Shown here one piece after another: positions 2 through 45,768 of a DNA stretch of 64,000 bases. Each line of letters opens with the position of its first letter. The stretch's first letter is position 1. Origin of the DNA: an uncultured Methanosarcinales archaeon (GTDB lineage: Archaea; Nanobdellota; Nanobdellia; Woesearchaeales; CAZOXR01). A program made the position numbers and the translations under genes. Under the pieces are notes generated by a model that was not told the origin of the DNA, did no database searches, and worked only from the letters and a program-made list of their open reading frames with translations. Where the stretch lies: assembly GCA_964566535.1 (NCBI GenBank), contig CAZMIO010000001.1:183751-247750 (forward strand). Direction: 5' to 3'.

Positions 2-1882
2 TTTGATCCTAAGCTTAGTCAGGTTGAGATTGAGGAGATAAGCCTTGACTTTGGGTCGTATAAGCAGGCCCTTCGTACAGGAGATAATAAGATCTGGTTT
101 CATGGTGAAGTTTTTGATGAATTATCTGCTACGTTAAGTGCTCCTGATGAGATTGTTGAGCAGATTGAGAATCCTAATCTAAAGATATTGAATGTGTTGA
201 ACGTTAAGATAGAGGGTGGTGAGGGTGCTGGTACTGTTTTAGAGATGCCTTACGTACAAGATGATAAGATTGATGAGGCAAGTGTGGGAATTTATGTTAA
301 ATTGAACGAGAGCTGGGAACTGGTTGGTGGTAAAGTTGGAGGGGGAGTTGTAAAGGTGGCTGTAGAAGATATTAATCAGTACCTTAGTAGTGATGGTGAG
401 GCAGTATTTGCTACAATGGGTGCAATATGTGTTAATTGTGTTAATTCCTCATTTGAGATGGTCTATGAGCCTAATGTAAAAAGCAGAGAGGCAGTATTAT
501 TAGTTCATGGGTTTACTAGTACACCTCTAACTTATTCTGAGATGATTGATGATATCATACTGACTGAGCAGCCGTATCAGTTATGGGTTTATGGTTATCC
601 TTCAACCAGAAAGCTTGATTTGAGTATTACGGAACTTGCTGACTTTTTAGAAGCTAATTCTGCTAAGTTTGACAAGTTGACTATTGTTGCACATAGTTTG
701 GGCGGGTTAGTTGTTCAGCAAGCTCTTTATCTGAGTGAACAGAATCCTAATGAGTATAGTTATCTTGATAAGGTAAAGAAGTTGGTATTGATTGGGGTTC
801 CAAATGAAGGTGCTCCTGGAATTCAGAATCAAAAGGAGATATTTAATTATATTGCCAATTTAAGGACTAAGAATTTCTTTGATAGTGAGAATATTCTATT
901 TGATACTTTAGCTGAAGGGATTGTAACTCCTAAGATTGAAGGGATAAATTACTATGTTGTTGCCGGTGTTAAGCCCATCTCAGTTTCGCTACCATTCTTT
1001 AAAACCGATACTGGGGAAGTATTTGAGATTTATGAGAAGAATGATGGGATTGTAACAGTTTCTAGTGCTCAGAGAGTTGGTGATGAATATATTAATGATA
1101 TGTGCAATAATTATTGGGAGATAAATTTATCGCATATTGAGCAGATTCATGAGAAAGAAGGGAGAGAATTGGTTGAGAAGATATTATCTGAAGAATTGTT
1201 GAGTAGGGATGAGCAGACTTCTTTGTTAGGTAATAATCAATACTTTAAATTGAAGATTGCTGATTGTTCAGCTGAGGACCAGTATGTTGTGATGGGTAAG
1301 AAGATTCCTGCCCAAGAGGTTGAAGATCCAACTGGTTGTTCGTGCGGGAATGGTTTTTGTGGAGTTGGTGAGGATGAGTTTAGCTGTCCTTCTGATTGTG
1401 AAGTTAATATTGTAAAGAGTTCGATTCCAATATTACCTTATGTTCTTGGGGTTTTGATATTGATCTTTTCTGTTTATAGGCATGGTAGGATACAGAGGTT
1501 GAAACATATTGGAGTTAGGAAACTGTTGATTCTTATTAAAGGGAATTATGATATTTCGGTTGTTGAGGGTATTAGTTCGATTGAGCTAAAAAGGGAGCTT
1601 TCTGAGAAAGGGATATCGCATAGGTTCTTTGATGATGCCATTAAAGTTATCTATAATGATTTCTTGAAGAAGTATATTTCGCTTGAGGATGATGTTGAGA
1701 GTAGGATTAGTAAAGGTGCTTCTAAAGAGAAGGTTGTGAAGGAATTTATGAAGGACGGTTGGAGTTCAGGTATAATTGAGAAAGCTATTGATAAGGAAGT
1801 GATTCACATTAAGTTTAGGAAGAAGGTTGTTCGTGATGTTGTGGTTAAGAGTAAGGGTAAGTATTTTGGGGTGAGTTCGTGA
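2..1882 (+). CDS. Secreted/membrane-anchored alpha/beta-hydrolase (lipase/esterase-like). The reading frame is open to the window edge, so the gene is probably 5'-partial; the first ATG in the window is at 188.
   Basis: LLVHGFTSTP and GHSLGG (GxSxG nucleophile elbow) motifs; a Cys-rich stretch followed by a hydrophobic TM helix (IPILPYVLGVLILIFSVY) and then a cytoplasmic tail; the in-frame ORF has no stop back to position 2. Confidence 0.6.
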   Translation, partial: FDPKLSQVEIEEISLDFGSYKQALRTGDNKIWFHGEVFDELSATLSAPDEIVEQIENPNLKILNVLNVKIEGGEGAGTVLEMPYVQDDKIDEASVGIYVKLNESWELVGGKVGGGVVKVAVEDINQYLSSDGEAVFATMGAICVNCVNSSFEMVYEPNVKSREAVLLVHGFTSTPLTYSEMIDDIILTEQPYQLWVYGYPSTRKLDLSITELADFLEANSAKFDKLTIVAHSLGGLVVQQALYLSEQNPNEYSYLDKVKKLVLIGVPNEGAPGIQNQKEIFNYIANLRTKNFFDSENILFDTLAEGIVTPKIEGINYYVVAGVKPISVSLPFFKTDTGEVFEIYEKNDGIVTVSSAQRVGDEYINDMCNNYWEINLSHIEQIHEKEGRELVEKILSEELLSRDEQTSLLGNNQYFKLKIADCSAEDQYVVMGKKIPAQEVEDPTGCSCGNGFCGVGEDEFSCPSDCEVNIVKSSIPILPYVLGVLILIFSVYRHGRIQRLKHIGVRKLLILIKGNYDISVVEGISSIELKRELSEKGISHRFFDDAIKVIYNDFLKKYISLEDDVESRISKGASKEKVVKEFMKDGWSSGIIEKAIDKEVIHIKFRKKVVRDVVVKSKGKYFGVSS

Positions 1883-4266
1883 GGAAAGGGTATTTGATTT
1901 TGGTTCTGTTTTTGGTTATTAGTAGTTATCTTGTTATTGGCCTTGAGGGGAGTATTGCTCCGGGGGATGGTGGTGAGGTGCCTTCTGGGCCTAGTGATCA
2001 TGATTGGGATGGGGATGGTGTTTTGAATGATGATGATGTTTTTCCTCGGAATCCTAATGAATGGGCTGATGTTGATTTTGATGGGTTTGGGGATAATTGG
2101 GATGCTAAGTATTTAGAGGTTGGGAATAATGATGGGGCTGTGCAGAATGATGATTGGGATGGTGATGGTCTGACGAATATACGTGAGTTTGAGATAGGGA
2201 GTGATCCGAATAGTGTTGTTGTTGGTGGAAGTGGTGATGGTTCTTCAGGTGAGAGTGCTGAAACAACAACTCCTTCTCCAGTGAGTGAGTATAGGGAAAC
2301 TCCTGAAACTTCATGTGGCTGTCCCGATTTAGATGGTGATGGTGAAGTTACAATTTCTGATATGGTTATGGCTGCCGTTGATTTTGGGGAAGGTTATATT
2401 GGAGATTTGGTTTGTGTTGCAACTAGGTTTGGGGGAGAGGTTGAGTGTGGAGAACAAGTAGAGGTTGGTGATGGACAAGCTAGTGAAGTTGTTGATATAG
2501 ATGAAGCGTATCGTGATTTAAGAAGGGGATGGGAAATAGAATCTGGAGATGAGGTTCTTGAAATTAATCTTGAGGAGTATTCATTATCAGAGTTATTTAA
2601 CTCCCTTGGTGTCTCTGAGAGTGCAGTAGTTGAGGTAGGACCAGGGATAGACCCAGTTACTGTAGATATTAAAAAGTTTACAGCTTGGTTTTATGATTTG
2701 GGTATTAGATATAGAATAGATATGGTGCTGGAAATTTTAACATCAGTTGATAGACCTGGAATTGCACCGAGAGGTGTTCACGCAAATATATATGAATATG
2801 AGAATGAATATGGTATTATTGGTGAAGGCCAAATCTCATTAATATCTAAAAATGAAAATAAATACTATAGAGATTCCTTGGAAGGTTATCTAAACCAAAG
2901 AGGAAAATCTGTTAGTACTATTTTGAATGAACTTAAAGGGGATCTAAATAGGCCAAAAGATGAATTTAAACATAGGCAGTATATTGGTGTTGAGGAGGTA
3001 GAAGATTCCCATTTGTTTAGTATATCTGATTTAAGAAGTGGTAGTTTAACATTTATGAGAGGGTCTGCTTTAATAGAAGTAAATTCAGAAGAAGATGTTG
3101 AAGATTTTCCATTAGATGGAGAGATTTTTGAATATCAATTTGATGAAGAAACTGGAATATCAACAGTTACTAGGCATACTAAATATTTAGATTACAGTGG
3201 TGAAGGAGGGATTCAATATGCAGATACTGTAATTTGGGAGATAGGGTTGGAAGGAGAGTTAATCTCTAGAGTTGGTGGAAGAGACCCAATAGCTATACAA
3301 CAAGAATACCAAGAAGGTATTTTAGCAATAACTGCTGATGTTGTTGTTGGTGATGTAGTTGAACATGTACCAATTAAAGGAGGTCTTGAAAAAATAACTG
3401 GAAGAGGTTTTGTTATATCCTCTGGATCCGGTTCTCAAGATGAAACTGACCCACTATCTGAAGATGTATCAGATGGTGAAGACTCATTAGATAGGGTAAA
3501 TGAAAAAGAAGAGAAAGAAGGGAGAGAGGTTGTCACAAATGTAGAGGTTCTTCCAATAGAATCAAAACCAAATGTTGATGATGTAGGTGATGTTAAATTT
3601 CTATATGAGGTCAAGTACTCAACCAAGGATATATTATTACTTCAAATGGATGGGAGACTAGCAGATATTATTGACAATCATGTTCAAGGTATGTTTGAAG
3701 CTGGATATGCAGACAGCCTATATCTAGGTGATTTGTTTCATGGACATTTTTATTCTCTAGATCCACAATTTCATCTAAACTTCCCAGATCATCCAATATC
3801 CCTAGAGGACTGGACAGACATTTATTTGGATGGGGATATGGGGATTGTGTATCACACAAGAGAGGGCGAATATAATGATGTACCTTACACAGGGCCTGCT
3901 AGGAGTCTATTGGGTACATCTGATGGAGAGGTGCGTCCAATGGTACCTCAAAATGATGATGCAAGATTTGAAAATTATGGGACTGTATTTGGGGATGATC
4001 CTTTTTTAACATATGAATCTAATGTTGGAGGCGTGTACATCGGAGATCCTGAAGAACATGAGGGAGTAGGACATACTCAACCAGTTGATGCAACCTTTGA
4101 AGGTACTCATTCTGAGTATGGGATGATACTCTCTGATGATCCTTACAAATACGGCTTGTTCACAGTATTTATGGATGAAAATGGTAGGTACGATTTACCT
4201 AGTGGGGAAAGATATGATATTTTTTATTGGTTAGAAGAAAGGGATGCTGAAGATGATGATAAATAA
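1879..4266 (+). CDS. Large secreted protein with Ca-binding thrombospondin-type-3/dockerin-like Asp repeats
   Basis: N-terminal signal/TM (LILVLFLVISSYLVIG); repeated DWDGDG(V/L)(L/T)N and DLDGDGEVTISDM (dockerin-like) motifs; overlaps the upstream gene by 4 bp (GTGA), suggesting an operon. Confidence 0.55.
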   Translation: MRKGYLILVLFLVISSYLVIGLEGSIAPGDGGEVPSGPSDHDWDGDGVLNDDDVFPRNPNEWADVDFDGFGDNWDAKYLEVGNNDGAVQNDDWDGDGLTNIREFEIGSDPNSVVVGGSGDGSSGESAETTTPSPVSEYRETPETSCGCPDLDGDGEVTISDMVMAAVDFGEGYIGDLVCVATRFGGEVECGEQVEVGDGQASEVVDIDEAYRDLRRGWEIESGDEVLEINLEEYSLSELFNSLGVSESAVVEVGPGIDPVTVDIKKFTAWFYDLGIRYRIDMVLEILTSVDRPGIAPRGVHANIYEYENEYGIIGEGQISLISKNENKYYRDSLEGYLNQRGKSVSTILNELKGDLNRPKDEFKHRQYIGVEEVEDSHLFSISDLRSGSLTFMRGSALIEVNSEEDVEDFPLDGEIFEYQFDEETGISTVTRHTKYLDYSGEGGIQYADTVIWEIGLEGELISRVGGRDPIAIQQEYQEGILAITADVVVGDVVEHVPIKGGLEKITGRGFVISSGSGSQDETDPLSEDVSDGEDSLDRVNEKEEKEGREVVTNVEVLPIESKPNVDDVGDVKFLYEVKYSTKDILLLQMDGRLADIIDNHVQGMFEAGYADSLYLGDLFHGHFYSLDPQFHLNFPDHPISLEDWTDIYLDGDMGIVYHTREGEYNDVPYTGPARSLLGTSDGEVRPMVPQNDDARFENYGTVFGDDPFLTYESNVGGVYIGDPEEHEGVGHTQPVDATFEGTHSEYGMILSDDPYKYGLFTVFMDENGRYDLPSGERYDIFYWLEERDAEDDDK

Positions 4267-8178: not shown

Positions 8179-8270
8179 GGGCTGGTAGTTAAACCTGGTT
8201 ACAACGTCCGGCTGGCAGCCGGGTGGTCCGAGTTCAAATAAGATTAGCTTTGAAAGTCTCGGCCAGTCCA
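8179..8270 (+). tRNA. tRNA-Ala (anticodon GGC) with a roughly 18-nt non-canonical intron in the T-loop
   Basis: Acceptor GGGCUGG/CCAGUCC with the G3:U70 Ala identity pair; anticodon stem-loop UCCGG-CUGGCAG-CCGGG (U33, GGC, A37); T-stem CCGAG...CUCGG interrupted after TTCAAAT by AAGATTAGCTTTGAAAGT, whose TTTGAA can pair with exon TTCAAA (BHB-like). Confidence 0.65.
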
Positions 8271-11083: not shown

Positions 11084-11205
11084 GCGGGTGTAACTCAGCC
11101 TGGTTAGAGTGCTAGACTCATATTTTTGAGTGATGAGGCGAAAGCCGATGAAAAAACTTAAACCGGGTTATCTAGAAGTCGTGATTTCGAATATCGCCAC
11201 CCGCA
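11084..11205 (+). tRNA. Elongator tRNA-Met (anticodon CAU) with a roughly 47-nt intron at canonical position 37/38
   Basis: Acceptor GCGGGUG/CACCCGC (G1-C72, so not the initiator); D-arm ACUC-AGCCUGGUUA-GAGU; anticodon stem CUAGA/UCUAG with loop CUCAUA; T-arm GUGAU-UUCGAAU-AUCGC; the intron contains GUGAUGA...GGCGAAAGCC...CGAUGA. Confidence 0.7.
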
Positions 11206-12042
11206 CTATTTTTTCTCTAATCTTTTCTTTTTCTCAGAAGTAATTAGGTAGTTATCATTAGAAATAACACTTTTGCCTAATCTTTGTTCAATGTCTTTTC
11301 TAGTAGAACCTGCAACTTCTCCGCCATCTCTTGCATCTTCTTTTAGTTTTGGAAAAACTTGGGAATCTCTTTCTTTTGTGAACCTTGTTGTAGTTGCTTC
11401 GCCCAGCATTGTTAATACTAATTCTATATCATCCATATGATCCCTTAAATTTTGGTTTTCTAGGCATTTATAATCTTTATACTCTTTTGGTGTTAAGTCA
11501 AATGTTGCCTTTGTTATCTCTGCTGTAAGGATTGAGTATTCTTTATTGGTCTTTACTCCTCTTTTATCCCATTCGTCTGTTAATTCGTCCCTTATTGCTA
11601 TTCCCCTAATCCTCTTTTCAATCCAATTATCAGAATAACCTTTGGATTTATAGAGCTCTTTCATTCGTTTTTGAGCTAATTCTGGGTCTTCTATTTCCTG
11701 AACTCTTTCGTATCCTACTTTTGCTAACCATCTTTTGAATGGTTCTGCTTTTTTTGAGGGGATGGATTGGATTATTCGAAACATGGATTTAGTGTGGGCA
11801 CAATCTGTTAAGTATCTCTTTCCATCTGCTGAGAGTAATTTCAGTTGTCGACAAAATGTCGATAACTCGGTTTCACTAGATTCGAACTCTCTTTTTTTCA
11901 AACGATACCAATAGTCTTTTGCATCGACACTATCTGTTAATGCTTCCACAATGTCAACCACTGAGAAATACCATTGTTCATTGTAATATATTCTCCTAAT
12001 GTTCTTTCCCTGGAATACAACTAATGCCTTGTTTTGGTCCAT
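11206..12042 (-). CDS. Bro-N domain protein (phage/mobile-element-associated family), paralog 1
   Basis: N-terminal MDQNKALVVFQGKNIRRIYYNEQWYFSVVDIVEALT has the Bro-N pattern; 278 aa; paralog of 39588..40424. Confidence 0.55.
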   Translation of the reverse strand: MDQNKALVVFQGKNIRRIYYNEQWYFSVVDIVEALTDSVDAKDYWYRLKKREFESSETELSTFCRQLKLLSADGKRYLTDCAHTKSMFRIIQSIPSKKAEPFKRWLAKVGYERVQEIEDPELAQKRMKELYKSKGYSDNWIEKRIRGIAIRDELTDEWDKRGVKTNKEYSILTAEITKATFDLTPKEYKDYKCLENQNLRDHMDDIELVLTMLGEATTTRFTKERDSQVFPKLKEDARDGGEVAGSTRKDIEQRLGKSVISNDNYLITSEKKKRLEKK

Positions 12043-18928: not shown

Positions 18929-20104
18929 CTAATAGAATAACTCTTGATTCATCTTGAGTTGATTATTAACAACCGTAAATGGTCTTCTTAAAACAACTCT
19001 CAATTTATGTTTGTTTACCATTCTATTTAAGATTGTAGACATTATCCCATATCTCATTTTTAATTTGATCATTAATTCTCTTTTTGTAATAGGGGAATCA
19101 CACAATGAATATACTCTATTTTCAATACTTGTTGGATTATAGGGTGTACTGTAACACTCTATCATTTTTGATAGTTGGTTTTTCTTTATTTCAGAGTTAA
19201 AGCCAATCTTTTCTTTATAATCCTTTAATGAGTATACAATAAGGGTAAATTTTGAAGATCTTATTTTAGTCTTATATCTTATATTTAGATTATCTAAAAC
19301 CATTTGTACCCTTTTAATTCTCCTTACCCCTTTAATGCTCTGCCTTAAAATAATAGTACCATGTATATCTACATGTCCATCAGCATCAAAGAAACCTTTG
19401 GCATATTCTGATTGAACTTTCTTAGAAGCTCCACCTAAAAAATAATCTAACTTTTCTTCAATATTATTGAATAAATCATTTATTTTACTTCCTCCTATAT
19501 GTAGGATAACAAAACCTTCTTTTCTTTGGCGCTTAGAATAACTGATTATTCTTTCATTATTGAATGTCTCCTTAACTTTATCTACTAGGGCTGATTTTAT
19601 AGAATATGTATAAATTGACCATTTATTACTTGTTTTAATTAATTCATCAGTTATTTCTTTATATCTTAATAGCAAATCAATTTCTTTAGGTGAAGAACAC
19701 GCAGCAATTATTGGATTAGCTTTAGAACCATCTCCATCTCTATAACCAAAATACCAAGCTAACTTTTCATTTAGAACAAAACTAGAAGGTAATTCATAAT
19801 GTCCATTGTATCCTTGTGAATTGAAACTTATGATATTATTCCATATTTGTTCAATATTTAAATTTAGATAACTGAGGATTTTTAATAAATCTTTGAATGT
19901 AGGTTTAGTAGCTCCTCTTCGCCAGCAATTTATTGAATTCTTTTGATATCCTAACTCTTTTGCTAAATCTTTTGCAGATGTTCCTGCTTTTTGGATAGCT
20001 TCATTAAAGAGATTAGTTCTAAATTCTTTTTCCAAATTTAACCTAATATTATGAGGTAAAAAATCTTTTATGTGTATTTTTTGATAATGATTATTTGTAT
20101 TCAA
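18929..20104 (-). CDS. Free-standing double-motif LAGLIDADG homing-endonuclease-like protein with an N-terminal HTH (paralog A)
   Basis: HTH-like SAKDLAKELGYQKNSINCWRRG; LAGLIDADG motif 1 LAWYFGYRDGDGS and motif 2 AKGFFDADGHVD about 120 aa apart; acidic residues retained; possible C-terminal wHTH. Confidence 0.6.
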   Translation of the reverse strand: MNTNNHYQKIHIKDFLPHNIRLNLEKEFRTNLFNEAIQKAGTSAKDLAKELGYQKNSINCWRRGATKPTFKDLLKILSYLNLNIEQIWNNIISFNSQGYNGHYELPSSFVLNEKLAWYFGYRDGDGSKANPIIAACSSPKEIDLLLRYKEITDELIKTSNKWSIYTYSIKSALVDKVKETFNNERIISYSKRQRKEGFVILHIGGSKINDLFNNIEEKLDYFLGGASKKVQSEYAKGFFDADGHVDIHGTIILRQSIKGVRRIKRVQMVLDNLNIRYKTKIRSSKFTLIVYSLKDYKEKIGFNSEIKKNQLSKMIECYSTPYNPTSIENRVYSLCDSPITKRELMIKLKMRYGIMSTILNRMVNKHKLRVVLRRPFTVVNNQLKMNQELFY

Positions 20105-20290: not shown

Positions 20291-21229
20291 TTAATAATTT
20301 AAGAATCTACTCTCGAAGTTGTCTTTCATTAATAATACCACCCTACTTTCCTTCTTGTCATCTACAATTTTAAAGTTGGTTAATGAAGATATTTTCTTAG
20401 CAAAGTCGATTATTTCACTATGTATTGGCATATTAGTTATTTCTAGCCTTTGTTTAGAGTGTCCTACCCAGACATAAGCTTTTGCTTCAATGAATTGTGG
20501 AGATGCTTGTTTTATTAATTCAGCGTACTTTTCTGGCTTAATTAGATTTACGTCTTTTGCTAATGTTAAGCGTAAAGTGTTTCTTTTGAATTTGTTCATT
20601 AGGTTTATTGATTCTAATATTTTTTCCCATTGGTTTTTTACTAAGGGTGAGCAGATGCGTTCGTAAGTTTGCTCGTCAGGTGCTGGGAGAGTTATGTATA
20701 ACTGAGTTGGTTGTTGGTTGATTAATTGTTTTAACATTTCTGGGTTTGTTCCGTTTGTAACTAGGAAAGATGAGATTTTTCTATTTTTTAGTTCTTTGAT
20801 AAACTCTGGAAGTTTTGGATATAATGTTGGTTCTCCGCTTAGAGAGATTGCGAAGTGTAGTGGGTGTTGGGCTTCTGCATATTTTTCTCTGTCTGATTTA
20901 TCGGTTCCGCCAAAACCTTGAATGTATTTGACGTGTTCTTTTATGCAGTTGTCGATGATTTCGGATGGTTCGTCAACTGGCCCCGCCCATTTTGGTTGTG
21001 TAAACTCGATATCTCGCCAACACCAGTTACATCTATTTGAGCAGAATTGTAAAGCTGGAGTCATCTGGACGCATCTATGTGAGTTAATATTGTAGAAGGT
21101 TTTTTTGTAGCAGACGTCCTCGCACCTGATTGCTTTTTTTGTCCATAAGCATACCTTGATACTGCTATGATTACCAACTACCCTATACCCCTGTTTATAA
21201 AGATCTTTGACCTTCTCTTTTGTTAACAT
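20291..21229 (-). CDS. taw1: tRNA 4-demethylwyosine synthase Taw1/TYW1 (radical SAM)
   Basis: HRCVQMTP...CSNRCNWCWR (CX3CX2C); AISLSGEPTLYP; PTQLYITLPA; VGHS; ESRVVLL; all collinear with archaeal Taw1. Confidence 0.8.
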   Translation of the reverse strand: MLTKEKVKDLYKQGYRVVGNHSSIKVCLWTKKAIRCEDVCYKKTFYNINSHRCVQMTPALQFCSNRCNWCWRDIEFTQPKWAGPVDEPSEIIDNCIKEHVKYIQGFGGTDKSDREKYAEAQHPLHFAISLSGEPTLYPKLPEFIKELKNRKISSFLVTNGTNPEMLKQLINQQPTQLYITLPAPDEQTYERICSPLVKNQWEKILESINLMNKFKRNTLRLTLAKDVNLIKPEKYAELIKQASPQFIEAKAYVWVGHSKQRLEITNMPIHSEIIDFAKKISSLTNFKIVDDKKESRVVLLMKDNFESRFLNY

Positions 21230-22494
21230 GAACTCACCTTTAGATTTTTTAATGTATTAAATATCTCAATATTCTCTTTTTTGAAACATTTTTTATAATG
21301 CCCGAGTCTATCCAATTCTTGAGTTATATCTCTGAAAGAATCGAAATTCTCTTTAAACCATCTTAAACCTTTTTCTGTTGGTAAATGTAAAAAAGGATCA
21401 GAACCCTGACCTGTTCCATCTCTTGATAATAATTTTTGTTTGACAAATTCGGCTGCTGTTGCACTAGCATTGGATGGATGTATCCTAAAACAGTTAGCAA
21501 ATCGATTTATTGTTAAATTAGGAAATAGTAAAAAACTTGAAAAATATAATATATCATGTTCCCTAATCCTGTTTCCTTTAATCAATCCTTCTACCTCTTC
21601 TTTTTTCTTATGCGAAGGTATAAACGTTAATATATTTTTACTAAAAATATTAAAATCAGATTCCCTATTTGACCGATTATAGCCAATACTTACAAAATTT
21701 ATATAAAATTTTGGATTTTTAAAATTTAAATCTTTGATTATGTTAAGGACCAGGTTGATCTCCTTTTGATCAGTCATCCCCCATTGTAGTTTATTGCTTC
21801 TTTTATCTGCTGTTCCTTCCGCTGAAAAAAATCCTGCTAAAAATCTAAATTTAAATTCTTTTGAGCTTTTCCTTAGAATAAAATCAAAATTTTCAAATAC
21901 CTTGGTTAAGATGGTAGATAAAGGTGTATTTGCTAATCTGATTATAGCTGTCAAACCATTTGCTCCTTCTGATAAGTTGTTTGTTTTGTTGGGCTTGAAT
22001 TTAATTTTATTAAGGCCTACTTTGATTAAATTTTCTTTTAAATCTTTAATTCTTGATTCTAAAACTAAATTTCCGTATTGGATTCTTATATCACATTTAT
22101 TTATATCTTGATTTAAGGATTTCAAATAATCTACAAAATATTTTATATTTTCTATATCATTATTTCCAAATCCAATATGTTTTATTATCTTACTTCTTTT
22201 ATCAATTGATGTCAGACCATCTCCAATCCATAAACCTAAAAAAACAGGGTCTAAAGTAAATTCTTTAGGTACTATATTTGAAAACTTATTTCCTTTTCCC
22301 TGTGACTCTATTTCAATGATATCTTCATTTTCTGAGATTATATTCCAAACATTCCCTCCTTGTTTTCTTTGTCTTTGTTTTTTTTGGTTTACTAATGATC
22401 TTATTATTCTTTCACTATTTATTATTGGGTATCCATTTGTAAAATTTAAGTTATTCTTAAAATCTTCAATTTGTAATTTTTGATTAGTTTTCAT
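21223..22494 (-). CDS. Free-standing double-motif LAGLIDADG homing-endonuclease-like protein with a C-terminal extension (paralog B)
   Basis: Motif 1 VFLGLWIGDGLTS and motif 2 FLAGFFSAEGTADK about 125 aa apart; its stop overlaps the taw1 start by 7 nt (co-transcribed). Confidence 0.55.
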   Translation of the reverse strand: MKTNQKLQIEDFKNNLNFTNGYPIINSERIIRSLVNQKKQRQRKQGGNVWNIISENEDIIEIESQGKGNKFSNIVPKEFTLDPVFLGLWIGDGLTSIDKRSKIIKHIGFGNNDIENIKYFVDYLKSLNQDINKCDIRIQYGNLVLESRIKDLKENLIKVGLNKIKFKPNKTNNLSEGANGLTAIIRLANTPLSTILTKVFENFDFILRKSSKEFKFRFLAGFFSAEGTADKRSNKLQWGMTDQKEINLVLNIIKDLNFKNPKFYINFVSIGYNRSNRESDFNIFSKNILTFIPSHKKKEEVEGLIKGNRIREHDILYFSSFLLFPNLTINRFANCFRIHPSNASATAAEFVKQKLLSRDGTGQGSDPFLHLPTEKGLRWFKENFDSFRDITQELDRLGHYKKCFKKENIEIFNTLKNLKVSSC

Positions 22495-39587: not shown

Positions 39588-40424
39588 TTAATTTTCAATT
39601 TCTTTTTTCTTTTTTTCAGTTAAGTGAAGATAATTTTCTTTTGAAGTTATGGATTTACCTGTCTTTTGCTCAATCTCCTTTCGTGTGTTTTTAGCTATCG
39701 TTCCTCCTTCAACAGCTGAGTGTTTACATTCACTAAATCCCTTGGAATCCTTTGAGACAGTGATATCAGTAGTTGCCTTTTCTCCAACCATTGTCAGTAT
39801 CAATTCCCAATCAGTCATATGGTCTCTTAGGTTTTGATTGTTGCGCTTTAAGCTTTTGAATTTCTTATATTCTTCAGTAGTCTTGTCAAATGTAGCTCTT
39901 GAAATCTCATTTGTGAGTATTGTGAATTCTTTTTGATTTTCTATATCTCTATTTTTCCATTCTTCAGTCAATTCCTGCCTTACTGCAATGCCCCTTAGCC
40001 TTTTATCAATCCAGTCTTTAGGGTAGCCTTTTAATTCATAGTATTCTTTTACTCTGTTTTGAGCTAACTCTGGGTTTTCTATCTCTTGGATTCTGTCATA
40101 ACCTACTTTTGCCAACCACCTTTTGAATGGTTCTGCTTTTGAAGACGGAATTGACTGAATTATACGAAATATGCCTTCTGTATTGGCACAATTCATGCTT
40201 TGAGATCCTCCAGAAGTAGGAATCGAAAGGGTATGTACAAATTGTACCCACCCTTTAGAAAGCTCTTCATCTCTTGTTCTCATTTTGCTAATATACTGCT
40301 TTGGGTCTTTGGAATCAGTAAGCACAAATACAATATCTTCTATTACAAACCACCACTCATCCTTAAACCAAGTTCTTCTAATATCTTTTCCTTGAAATAC
40401 AACTAATGCTTTGTTTTGGTCCAT
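39588..40424 (-). CDS. Bro-N domain protein, paralog 2
   Basis: MDQNKALVVFQGKDIRRTWFKDEWWFVIEDIVFVLT...RIIQSIPSSKAEPFKRWLAKVGYDRIQEIENPELAQ; the conserved stretches are near-identical to those of 11206..12042. Confidence 0.55.
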   Translation of the reverse strand: MDQNKALVVFQGKDIRRTWFKDEWWFVIEDIVFVLTDSKDPKQYISKMRTRDEELSKGWVQFVHTLSIPTSGGSQSMNCANTEGIFRIIQSIPSSKAEPFKRWLAKVGYDRIQEIENPELAQNRVKEYYELKGYPKDWIDKRLRGIAVRQELTEEWKNRDIENQKEFTILTNEISRATFDKTTEEYKKFKSLKRNNQNLRDHMTDWELILTMVGEKATTDITVSKDSKGFSECKHSAVEGGTIAKNTRKEIEQKTGKSITSKENYLHLTEKKKKEIEN

Positions 40425-43228: not shown

Positions 43229-43933
43229 GTGAGGTGGTTTAGGATGGAAATGGAAGAGGAAAAAATAACTATTGCTGTAAATAAACAAACCTGGGATGAA
43301 TTTAAGGGCTATTGTACTAATAATGCGTTTAAGCTTTCTAAGAAGATTGAGTTAATGATGAGGGAAGAGATTGAGAGAGGTCCCAAGACTAAGAATTTGA
43401 TTGATGTCTTCAAGGAGATTCTTAATAAACAGAAGAATGTGATGAATAATCATAAATTAGTTGAGCCTGCTCATGAGCCTAAATCTGTTGATAGAGTTGA
43501 GGAAGATAAGTTGATTGCACAGAGAGCTAAAGAAGTTAAGGTACCGGAAATAAGACCTTATGGTGTTAGGCAAGAGGTTCCGGAAGAGGAGCCTGAGGAT
43601 GATTCCGAGGAAGGGGGAGAGGTTGAGAAAGAGAAACCTTCTGTTGCTAGGGCCATATTTGAGAAGTATGTTATGAAGAGGGAGGAGACTCCTCCAAAGA
43701 TTGTTCCTTACGATGATACCATAAATAATGATGATAAGCCGTTAAGTGGTTACACAGAAGGTCCAAGGATAACTAAGGCTACCCAGGAAGAAGAGCAGAC
43801 TGCTGTAAAGCCAATAACAAAAGATGTAATGCCTCCTGAAGAAGAGTCAGTTGAAGATGATAATCCTAAGATGATGGGCAATTATAGAGATGCTCCTACA
43901 ATAGATCAGTTGATGCAGAAAAGGAAGGGGTAA
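43229..43933 (+). CDS. Hypothetical acidic protein
   Basis: ORF; E/D/P-rich C-terminal half. Confidence 0.35.
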   Translation: MRWFRMEMEEEKITIAVNKQTWDEFKGYCTNNAFKLSKKIELMMREEIERGPKTKNLIDVFKEILNKQKNVMNNHKLVEPAHEPKSVDRVEEDKLIAQRAKEVKVPEIRPYGVRQEVPEEEPEDDSEEGGEVEKEKPSVARAIFEKYVMKREETPPKIVPYDDTINNDDKPLSGYTEGPRITKATQEEEQTAVKPITKDVMPPEEESVEDDNPKMMGNYRDAPTIDQLMQKRKG

Positions 43934-43936
43934 AAA

Positions 43937-44056
43937 CGCGCCGAGGAAGATTCGAACTCCCGACCTATAGCTTAGGAGGCTATCGCTCTTTTTGGCTTCG
44001 CCAAAATCTTCTCGAACTTTGGGTTCTTCGAAGTATCCAAGCTGAGCTACCGGCGC
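43937..44056 (-). tRNA. tRNA-Arg (anticodon CCU) with a roughly 44-nt non-canonical intron in the D-loop
   Basis: Minus strand: GCGCCGG-UA-GCUC-AGCUUGGAUA-[CUUCGAAG...UUUUGGCGAAGCCAAAAA]-GAGC-G-AUAGC-CUCCUAA-GCUAU-AGGUC-GGGAG-UUCGAAU-CUUCC-UCGGCGC-G. Confidence 0.55.
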
Positions 44057-44112
44057 ATAGGAATAGGGTCTTTGGGAAGGTTTTTATAAGTTTTTGTTTT
44101 CATATTCTAAAT

Positions 44113-45054
44113 ATGTATATTATTAAGCAGATTCCAGAGGATTTTGTAGTTAAGGAAGTAAGCAATATTGAGGTTAAGGAAGTAGGGGGCTATTCTTACT
44201 ACAGGTTGAAGAAGAAGGATTATACTACGGTTAAGGCTGTTGAGCTAGTTGGTAATAAGTTAAGGGTTCCTGTTAAGAATATTGGTTTTGCTGGTTCTAA
44301 GGATAGAAGGGCAGTTACTGAGCAGATGATTTCTATTAAGAATTGTAATATTAAGGAATTGGTGTTAGATGGAATTAAAATAGAATTTGTTGGGAGGGGG
44401 GATGTGCCGATCTCGTTAGGGGAATTAGAAGGTAATGAGTTTGAGATAGTTATTAGGGAAGTTGAGGAAAAACCTGAGAAACTAGATAAGTTTGTTAATT
44501 ATTTTGGAGATCAAAGGTTTTCTAAAAATAATGTTGAAATTGGTAAGTTAATTGTTAAGAAGAAGTTTAAGGATGCTGCTAAATTGTTGGTCGAGAATGA
44601 GACTAATGAGAAGTATAGCGAATATTTAGCTAAGAATCCAAATGATTCTATTGGAATGTTGAGGAAGATTCCTAAAAAGATTCTGATAATGTATGTTCAT
44701 GCGTTTCAATCTTATGTTTGGAATGAAAGTGTAAAGAAATTAGGGGGTAGTGTAGATAAAATACCCATTGTTGGATTTGGTACTGAGTTTGAAAATGGTG
44801 AAGTTGAAAGGGTTGTTGAAGATATTCTAGAAAAGGAAGATGTTAGTTTAAGGGATTTTATTATTAGGGAAATTCCAGAACTAAGTTCGGATGGGACTGA
44901 AAGGGATGTTTATGTTGAAATTAAGGATTTAGAGATTTCTGGACTAGAAGATGATGAACTTAACAAAGGAAAAAAGAAAGTAAAATTAAAGTTTAAGTTA
45001 AACAAGGGCTGTTATGCAACCGAGGTTGTTAAGGCATTATTTGAGAGCAACTAA
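44113..45054 (+). CDS. truD: tRNA pseudouridine synthase TruD/Pus7 family
   Basis: PEDFVVKEV; GFAGSKDRRAVTEQMIS (catalytic Asp motif). Confidence 0.75.
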   Translation: MYIIKQIPEDFVVKEVSNIEVKEVGGYSYYRLKKKDYTTVKAVELVGNKLRVPVKNIGFAGSKDRRAVTEQMISIKNCNIKELVLDGIKIEFVGRGDVPISLGELEGNEFEIVIREVEEKPEKLDKFVNYFGDQRFSKNNVEIGKLIVKKKFKDAAKLLVENETNEKYSEYLAKNPNDSIGMLRKIPKKILIMYVHAFQSYVWNESVKKLGGSVDKIPIVGFGTEFENGEVERVVEDILEKEDVSLRDFIIREIPELSSDGTERDVYVEIKDLEISGLEDDELNKGKKKVKLKFKLNKGCYATEVVKALFESN

Positions 45055-45680: not shown

Positions 45681-45768
45681 AGCCCCCGGGGAGAGTTGAA
45701 CTCCCGACCTGCTGATTGCTTGCTTTGTAGCTACAAGTCAGCCGCTATAGCCACTAAGCCACGGAGGC
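45681..45768 (-). tRNA. tRNA-Thr (anticodon UGU) with a roughly 15-nt intron at 37/38
   Basis: Minus strand: GCCUCCG-UG-GCUU...GCUGA-CUUGUA-[GCUACAAAGCAAGCA]-A-UCAGC-AGGUC-GGGAG-UUCAACU-CUCCC-CGGGGGC-U. Confidence 0.6.

Follow-up and report, generated by a model that had tools for sequence, protein, structure and literature searches.

Introns that carry the bulge-helix-bulge (BHB) motif form, in the tRNA genes of Thermoproteales, Crenarchaeota and Nanoarchaeota, a class of transplantable elements that occupy many positions, sometimes several in a single gene, and that are gained and lost between close relatives (PMC4090602). Position 20/21 is among the non-canonical archaeal intron positions listed in that review (PMC4090602). 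In A. pernix, EndA on its own suffices to excise the D-loop BHB intron, at a lower rate than for an anticodon-loop intron; the narrow-specificity alpha'2 EndA of A. fulgidus scarcely cleaves it, which implies that a broad-specificity enzyme is needed (PMC3241643). In M. kandleri, tRNA-Glu(UUC) harbors an intron of the HBh' type at 20b/21 (PMC5829648). As for DPANN archaea, their EndA usually carries an insert, termed 'L3', that is associated with broad specificity and with a larger number of disrupted tRNA genes (PMC5829648), and the epsilon2 EndA of ARMAN-2 is an enzyme of broad specificity that cleaves strict as well as relaxed motifs (PMC3239211). Kaneta et al. have, in addition, described an 'incomplete tRNA set' problem in DPANN genomes and attributed it to undetected disrupted genes (PMC5829648).

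The window considered here is a 64-kb stretch of archaeal DNA (64,000 nucleotides), on the minus strand of which positions 43937..44056 very probably encode a functional tRNA-Arg(CCU) of a Woesearchaeota-type DPANN archaeon, split between U20a and A21 by a 45-nt archaeal BHB intron. The original prediction of a minus-strand tRNA-Arg(CCU) with an intron in the D-loop is borne out by the cloverleaf obtained upon splicing in silico and by a BHB motif located exactly at the junctions, where the search for such a motif had been proposed. The complete gene is 120 nt long, from G1 to the discriminator base G73, without an encoded CCA, and reads along the minus strand (44056..43937) GCGCCGG-UA-GCUC-AGCUUGGAUA, insert, GAGC-G-AUAGC-CUCCUAA-GCUAU-AGGUC-GGGAG-UUCGAAU-CUUCC-UCGGCGC-G. 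The 5' exon (pre-tRNA 1-22; 44035..44056, minus strand) comprises the 5' strand of the acceptor stem, U8 and A9, the D-stem strand GCUC and the D-loop AGCUUGGAU as far as U20a, its junction being defined by the BHB; the intron, delimited by the BHB rule, occupies pre-tRNA 23-67 (43990..44034, minus strand); and the 3' exon (pre-tRNA 68-120; 43937..43989, minus strand) begins with A21 and continues with the D-stem strand GAGC, the anticodon arm with the anticodon CCU (43976..43974, minus strand), the variable loop, the T-arm and the 3' strand of the acceptor stem. As read from the sequence, the acceptor, anticodon and T stems are all intact. All the strings quoted in the prediction were located in the pre-tRNA (GCGCCGGUAGCUCAGCUUGGAUA at 1-23, CUUCGAAG at 24-31, UUUUGGC-GAA-GCCAAAA at 51-67 and GAGC at 69-72), and the remainder of the molecule is canonical, as had been stated, with the anticodon loop CUCCUAA at 79-85 and the T-arm GGGAG-UUCGAAU-CUUCC at 96-112. 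An insert does precede GAGC, whereas the length of 44 nt assigned to it has to be corrected: GGAUA is separated from GAGC by 45 nt, which is also the intron length that follows from the BHB rule. The features expected of a tRNA-Arg are present, namely a 7-nt anticodon loop (CUCCUAA) with U33, the anticodon CCU, A20 in the D-loop (..GGAUA), which is an arginine identity element, and the purine discriminator G73. The G+C content is 42 % in the intron, 59 % in the exons and 52 % in the gene as a whole, compared to 35.5 % in the window.

The tRNA-Arg(CCU) gene has to itself the 179-bp spacer that separates a hypothetical ORF (43229-43933, plus strand) from a gene for a TruD pseudouridine synthase (44113-45054, plus strand). 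A TATA-like box, TTATAAAAA (44081..44089, minus strand), lies 25-33 nt upstream of G1 and a run of five T residues (43932..43936, minus strand) directly follows the discriminator base; both are retained in a sister contig (L140, see below), and a similar box, GTTTAAAAG, is found at an equal distance in the Woesearchaeota MAG L060. These elements, which were identified by eye because a scanner for sigma-70 promoters and terminators is not applicable to an archaeal host, are a putative archaeal promoter and a putative archaeal terminator, respectively. TruD, the tRNA pseudouridine-13 synthase, is transcribed divergently from the tRNA gene; as tRNA-Arg has C13, it is not an obvious substrate of this enzyme, and the adjacency, which is shared by the closest relatives only and is absent in the TruD relatives L141 and L142 (~52-53 % identity), looks coincidental. 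Relatives of this TruD number in the hundreds, and every named one is assigned to Candidatus Woesearchaeota or to GTDB 'Nanoarchaeota'. The assignment of the host to a Woesearchaeota-type DPANN lineage is based on these relatives and on those of DnaG, likewise named Woesearchaeota or Nanoarchaeota.

Standard tRNA finders overlook this gene. ARAGORN in its default mode detected no tRNA in the whole window and, with introns allowed, two tRNAs, neither of which is tRNA-Arg(CCU); the same two were reported by Rfam at the gathering threshold. At E <= 1, Rfam produced a partial tRNA match of 28.4 bits (model positions 9-63) at the unspliced locus, which we discarded as an artefact of the insert, since the match begins inside the insert and employs the intron bases AGCCAAAA as a fake D-arm. 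Removal of 42-51 nt from the D-loop in silico is sufficient for ARAGORN to call a tRNA-Arg(CCT), and exact deletion of pre-tRNA 23-67 gives a clean 75-nt cloverleaf, called as tRNA-Arg(cct), with a 10-nt D-loop. An alternative fold with an intron at the canonical 37/38 position is ruled out by the uninterrupted anticodon loop CUCCUAA, the insert being in the D-loop, and by the empty result of the ARAGORN intron mode for this gene. A tRNA-Ala in the same window (see below) also escapes both ARAGORN and the Rfam tRNA model, which gives the present observations some value for annotation: a genome annotated with these tools would seem to be devoid of tRNA-Arg(CCU), the decoder of AGG.

The geometry of the BHB was calibrated on the strict 37/38 motif of another tRNA in the window (45681-45768), in which bases of the 5' exon and of the intron form a 4-bp central helix, each strand of which is followed on its 3' side by a 3-nt bulge that is cut after its second base; for the strict hBHBh' form, the helix h that borders the motif in the exons and the helix h' that borders it in the intron were each required to have 2 bp or more. 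In the tRNA-Arg gene, the BHB scan yields exactly one motif that both restores a normal D-loop and possesses a substantial inner helix (5 bp). The central helix H of this motif consists of the exon strand UUGG (U17 U17a G18 G19; pre-tRNA 17-20; 44037..44040, on the minus strand like all the elements that follow) and the intron strand H', CCAA (pre-tRNA 62-65; 43992..43995), the latter shared with a competing hairpin. Cleavage is predicted after the second base of the 5' bulge B1, AUA (pre-tRNA 21-23; 44034..44036), that is, between U20a and A, and after the second base of the 3' bulge B2, AAA (pre-tRNA 66-68; 43989..43991), so that the 3' exon begins with A21. The inner helix h' is formed by CUUCG (pre-tRNA 24-28; 44029..44033) and CGAAG (pre-tRNA 57-61; 43996..44000). 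The predicted mature D-loop is AGCUUGGAU joined to A, i.e. AGCUUGGAUA, with the intron inserted between U20a and A21, a site that the coarser published numbering gives as 20/21, and at the predicted spliced junction GCUUGGAU is followed by AGAGCG. On the exon side of the 3' bulge, the outer helix h amounts to a single contiguous pair (C16:G69), or to the D-stem across a 3x3 internal loop, as opposed to the 5 bp of h'. Because the 3' site is weakly closed on the exon side, the motif appears slightly relaxed, with a strict 5' half and a relaxed, HBh'-like 3' half. When the 48-nt segment between G19 and G22 was shuffled, a strict 3-4-3 BHB that restores a D-loop of 7-11 nt and has an inner helix of 5 bp or more arose in 0.34 % of mononucleotide and 1.2 % of dinucleotide shuffles. 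Those hallmarks of a BHB intron that lend themselves to testing in silico are present, the outer helix alone being weak. The intron is judged to be real, and it is conserved in relatives. Neither a second copy of the intron in the 64-kb window nor C/D-box motifs within it were found.

The same scan recovers a second, weaker register, in which an intron of the same kind would be excised at a different place: GCUU (pre-tRNA 15-18) pairs with AAGC (59-62), the bulges are GGA and CAA, the intron is 44 nt long (21-64), the junction falls between GG and AAAAGAGC, and the mature D-loop would be AGCUUGGAAAA. The central helix of this register is a strict 4-bp one, and the splice site, 19/20, is that in use in a set of metagenomic tRNA-Arg(CCU) genes described below as Group A (L138, L128, L129 and L133). 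However, its inner helix consists of 1 bp, compared to 5 bp in the register preferred here, and its product would be an atypical 11-nt D-loop containing GGAAAA, in contrast to the GGAUA of the uninterrupted orthologue in L060, and we accordingly regard it as unlikely.

Comparison with related contigs lends further weight to the U20a/A21 intron. The locus, including the intron, is 100 % identical in ~10 independent contigs from several metagenomes; the window contig is carried by samples ERZ27245248, SRR25584940, SRR10556723/8 and ERZ23486393. In a sister contig from the TARA Oceans sample SAMEA2619974, L140, the gene order is the same as in the window, TruD is 83 % identical, the exons of tRNA-Arg are 100 % identical, and the D-loop intron differs by three substitutions in 45 positions (G28A, C36A and A50G), none of which touches H, B1, B2 or the first four pairs of h'. 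G28A removes the fifth pair of h', leaving 4 bp, and breaks the palindrome CUUCGAAG; C36A is accommodated by a one-base slip in the intron-internal helix; and the 7-bp hairpin UUUUGGC/GCCAAAA is kept in full. With only 3 of 45 nt different, there is too little variation for compensatory change to be seen in the tRNA-Arg intron itself. The L140 gene (790-959, minus strand) contains two introns, the second being a 50-nt intron at 37/38 with H CUCC:GAAG (one mismatch) flanked on either side by a 5-bp helix; this intron is absent from the window gene, from which it follows that the presence or absence of introns differs between close relatives.

These comparisons bear on the possibility that a 45-bp insertion has inactivated the gene, leaving a pseudogene or relic that gives rise to no functional tRNA. 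Such a reading would be compatible with the failure of standard tools to call the gene, but the exons are perfect and are 100 % conserved in a relative in which the neighboring protein is only 83 % identical, the promoter-like box and the T-run are retained, the insert contains a precisely placed BHB, the other three tRNAs of the window are interrupted as well, at least two of them (Ala and Thr) by strict BHB introns, and no other tRNA-Arg(CCU) gene was seen within the window. This explanation is therefore less probable still than the alternative register.

The orthologous gene of L060 (Woesearchaeota MAG RIFCSPHIGHO2_02_FULL_41_15; 63-154, plus strand) provides an uninterrupted counterpart, its D-arm GCUC-AGCUUGGAUA-GAGC being equal to the sequence predicted for the spliced window tRNA. 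The L060 gene has instead a 17-nt intron of the HBh' type at 28/29, in the anticodon stem, in which H (AGCG:CGCU) is contributed by bases of the 3' strand of the D-stem and the inner helix is CUU:AAG. A scan of metagenomes for tRNA-Arg(CCU) genes with D-loop inserts of 30-60 nt returned 14 loci, 12 of which appear to be genuine archaeal genes; L126 and L132 were rejected as tandem bacterial tRNAs, and for L134 and L137 the BHB scan gave no unambiguous motif. (An earlier, looser pattern applied to genome contigs gave, among the matches listed, mostly bacterial tRNA-Arg and a handful of usable archaeal loci.) About ten other metagenomic tRNA-Arg(CCU) genes were found to carry unrelated introns at 19/20, 20/20a or 20a/21. 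In Group A, the splice site is 19/20; L138 combines H GCUU:GAGC with an inner helix of 6 bp and a 29-nt intron, and in L128, L129 and L133, where the site is identical, H contains one mismatch. Group B consists of L127, L131, L135, L139 and the identical pair L130/L136; here the splice site is 20/20a, the GUUG of H pairs with CGAC, CGGC or CAAC, the bulges read GAA and AAU or AUU, the inner helix has 3-4 bp, and the introns measure 31-46 nt. The Group A contigs belong to Woesearchaeota/Nanoarchaeota, as judged by the relatives of DnaG, and the Group B contig L139 shows the PPDK-tRNA-Arg linkage seen in the window, with a PPDK that shares 55 % identity with its window counterpart, and encodes RtcB. 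A tRNA-Arg(CCU) of 173 nt in L136 (2589-2761, plus strand; the same as in L130) has, besides its 46-nt D-loop intron, a second one of ~55 nt that separates the T-loop from the 3' strand of the T-stem. The conservation of the intron position (20/21-22), which the prediction had suggested checking in related genomes, is not strict: the relatives have introns at 19/20, 20/20a or 20a/21, or else keep the D-loop uninterrupted and are split at 28/29.

The unrelated introns made it possible to examine covariation, which was evaluated for the inner helix only and anchored at the predicted splice sites, the pairs of H being left out because the scan had selected for H. Across 8 distinct D-loop introns, the first three pairs of the inner helix are formed in all cells (24/24), compared to 4-12 of 24 in slid registers, and the identities of the pairs vary widely. 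As MAFFT re-aligned the splice-anchored constructs by tRNA position, this count was computed in Python, and the pair-counting tool was used for Group B only, where pairing is complete (100 %, versus 9-66 % in slid registers) and all three h' pairs examined (3/3) have changed on both sides, that is, in a compensatory manner.

The hairpin UUUUGGC-GAA-GCCAAAA and the palindrome CUUCGAAG, both pointed out in the original prediction, are present in the insert, whereas neither is likely to be the structure operative in splicing, each giving one half to the BHB: in the splicing-competent fold, exon U17-G19 takes up the hairpin's CCAA and the CUUCG of the palindrome pairs with CGAAG. The two folds are mutually exclusive. 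The calculated energies are -41.6 kcal/mol for the unconstrained minimum free energy structure, -39.8 kcal/mol for the BHB conformer (modelled as the cloverleaf arms, the D-stem, the BHB and an intron-internal helix, 35-42:49-56) and -38.9 kcal/mol for the hairpin conformer. In this model the splicing-competent BHB fold is accessible, although it is not the lowest-energy state, and the hairpin conformer, which lies within 1 kcal/mol of it, competes with it; the conserved hairpin might serve as a switch in folding by which splicing is delayed. That the hairpin, with the palindrome, is itself the functional element, the insert being excised by a mechanism other than the BHB or retained, e.g. as an expanded D-loop or another processing signal, is the least probable of the explanations considered here, since, real, 7 bp long, close to the BHB conformer in energy and fully kept in L140 as it is, the hairpin is missing from the unrelated D-loop introns of relatives that preserve the BHB geometry and its covariation, the palindrome is broken by G28A in L140, and a 55-nt D-loop, for which we know of no precedent, would prevent the interaction of G18/G19 with the T-loop.

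As had been noted from the sequence, each of the four tRNA genes of the window is interrupted by an intron: Ala(GGC) at 59/60, Met(CAU) at 37/38, Arg(CCU) in the D-loop and the gene at 45681-45768 at 37/38. The use of non-canonical positions, also anticipated, holds for the T-loop intron of tRNA-Ala and for the D-loop intron of tRNA-Arg. The tRNA-Ala(GGC) (8179-8269, plus strand), with G3:U70, was found by an acceptor-stem scan, ARAGORN and Rfam (even at E<=1) having failed to call it; its 18-nt intron (8239-8256) is bounded by a strict hBHBh' motif with H UUCA:UGAA, bulges AAU and AGU, an inner helix of 3 bp, and the 5-bp T-stem as the outer helix. The tRNA at 45681-45768 (minus strand) was labelled by ARAGORN as Ala(TGC) with an intron at position 36; it has no G3:U70, has U73, and contains a strict BHB (H CUUG:CAAG) with a 15-nt intron (45717-45731) at 37/38 that leaves the anticodon UGU, which makes it more likely a tRNA-Thr(UGU). 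In L140, the corresponding tRNA-Thr (2585-2703, minus strand) is 119 nt long, as opposed to 88 nt in the window, indicating that its intron is longer or different, and is adjoined by a 213-aa LAGLIDADG_3 ORF (2740-3381, minus strand) that is missing from the equivalent spot in the window. The tRNA-Met(CAU) (11084-11206, plus strand) has a 47-nt intron at 37/38 for which the scan found no strict BHB, the H CUCA:CGGG having an A.C mismatch and no inner helix; the intron includes GUGAUGA and a GGCGAAAGCC hairpin, which recall C/D-box or K-turn elements, and no CUGA box was seen in it. Abutting the 3' end of this gene is an ORF (11206-12042, minus strand) for a 278-aa protein, 55 % identical to a paralog of the same length (39588-40424, minus strand), with no NCBIfam match for the one of the two that was tested; this arrangement suggests that a mobile or integrated element may lie beside the tRNA-Met gene. 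Elsewhere in the window, two ORFs situated one gene apart (18929-20104 and 21223-22494, both on the minus strand) match LAGLIDADG_3, one of them also HTH_3, and may be genes derived from homing endonucleases or mobile elements.

On the basis of the known archaeal pathway, the processing of this tRNA can be envisaged as follows. In the precursor, U17-U17a-G18-G19 would pair with the intron CCAA, flanked by the bulges AUA and AAA and by the inner helix CUUCG:CGAAG; EndA would cut after the second base of each bulge, the RtcB ligase would join the exons, and CCA would be added afterwards. With G18 and G19 held in the BHB helix, the elbow between the D-loop and the T-loop cannot form before splicing and would be established only thereafter, so that EndA has to recognize the BHB without the help of the mature tRNA body, an ability known from archaeal EndAs. 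The slightly relaxed motif probably needs an EndA of broad specificity, splicing by which would be ordinary archaeal biology, the type of enzyme in this organism being taken from the literature. Neither EndA nor RtcB was found among the 20 size-appropriate ORFs that were scanned out of ~60 in the window.

A broader interpretation can be put forward tentatively. In tRNA-Arg(CCU), the D-loop's 3' half might be a recurrent 'landing site' for introns in Woesearchaeota and related DPANN archaea, with unrelated introns of 29-46 nt at 19/20, 20/20a and 20a/21, each drawing the exon strand of its BHB from the conserved A14-G19 in a register of its own, and with close relatives gaining or losing introns at 37/38, at 28/29 and in the T-arm; on present data we consider this possible, with the balance of probability against it. 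If the introns resulted from independent insertions, rather than from the drift and sliding of a single ancient intron, tRNA-Arg(CCU) would represent a natural system for the study of the acquisition and movement of BHB introns, and D-loop substrates would seem to be processed routinely by DPANN EndAs. The comparison set displays fast turnover of introns in one tRNA within a single archaeal lineage. What is new here is modest: the Woesearchaeota lineage, the use of three adjacent D-loop sites by unrelated introns in the same isoacceptor, and gain or loss between close relatives. Existing knowledge of how such introns are recognized and removed is unchanged, and the value of the locus lies in annotation and in tracing intron turnover in DPANN archaea.

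Set beside the systems described previously, the window gene resembles the A. pernix tRNA-Thr gene in that a BHB intron resides in the D-loop of an otherwise normal tRNA, and in A. pernix the endonuclease removes the intron without guide RNA or modifications. It differs in that A. pernix is a crenarchaeon, in which another tRNA is involved and the EndA is an (alpha-beta)2 enzyme with the crenarchaeal CSL/L1 loop; cleavage is experimental in A. pernix and only predicted for tRNA-Arg, and the insertion positions are compared here at the level of the D-loop. The pre-tRNA-Glu(UUC) of Methanopyrus kandleri has its intron at a nearly identical site, immediately preceding A21 where the D-loop ends on its 3' side, with a relaxed HBh' motif, and this 20b/21 intron coexists with a canonical 37/38 intron, as in L140 (PMC5829648); unlike the present case, the host is a euryarchaeal hyperthermophile, the tRNA is a different one, and the enzyme has no specificity loop and cleaves this intron poorly (PMC5829648), whereas the tRNA-Arg motif has a strict 5' half and a 5-bp inner helix. 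With the non-canonical introns of Thermoproteales, Crenarchaeota and Nanoarchaeota (20/21, 22/23, 29/30, 59/60 and others), the tRNA-Arg intron shares membership in the same class (PMC4090602), and it differs from them in its host, a mesophilic, AT-rich member of the Woesearchaeota (DPANN); no sequence similarity that would indicate transposition was seen among the introns of the window. ARMAN-2 (Micrarchaeota, DPANN) is similar in that its introns occupy non-canonical sites, among them 59/60, the site also used by the tRNA-Ala of the window, and dissimilar in that its examples are in the T-loop, no D-loop case being described in the text consulted (PMC3239211). D-loop BHB introns have already been documented and cleaved in vitro, and the tRNA-Arg(CCU) intron of the window is of a known type.
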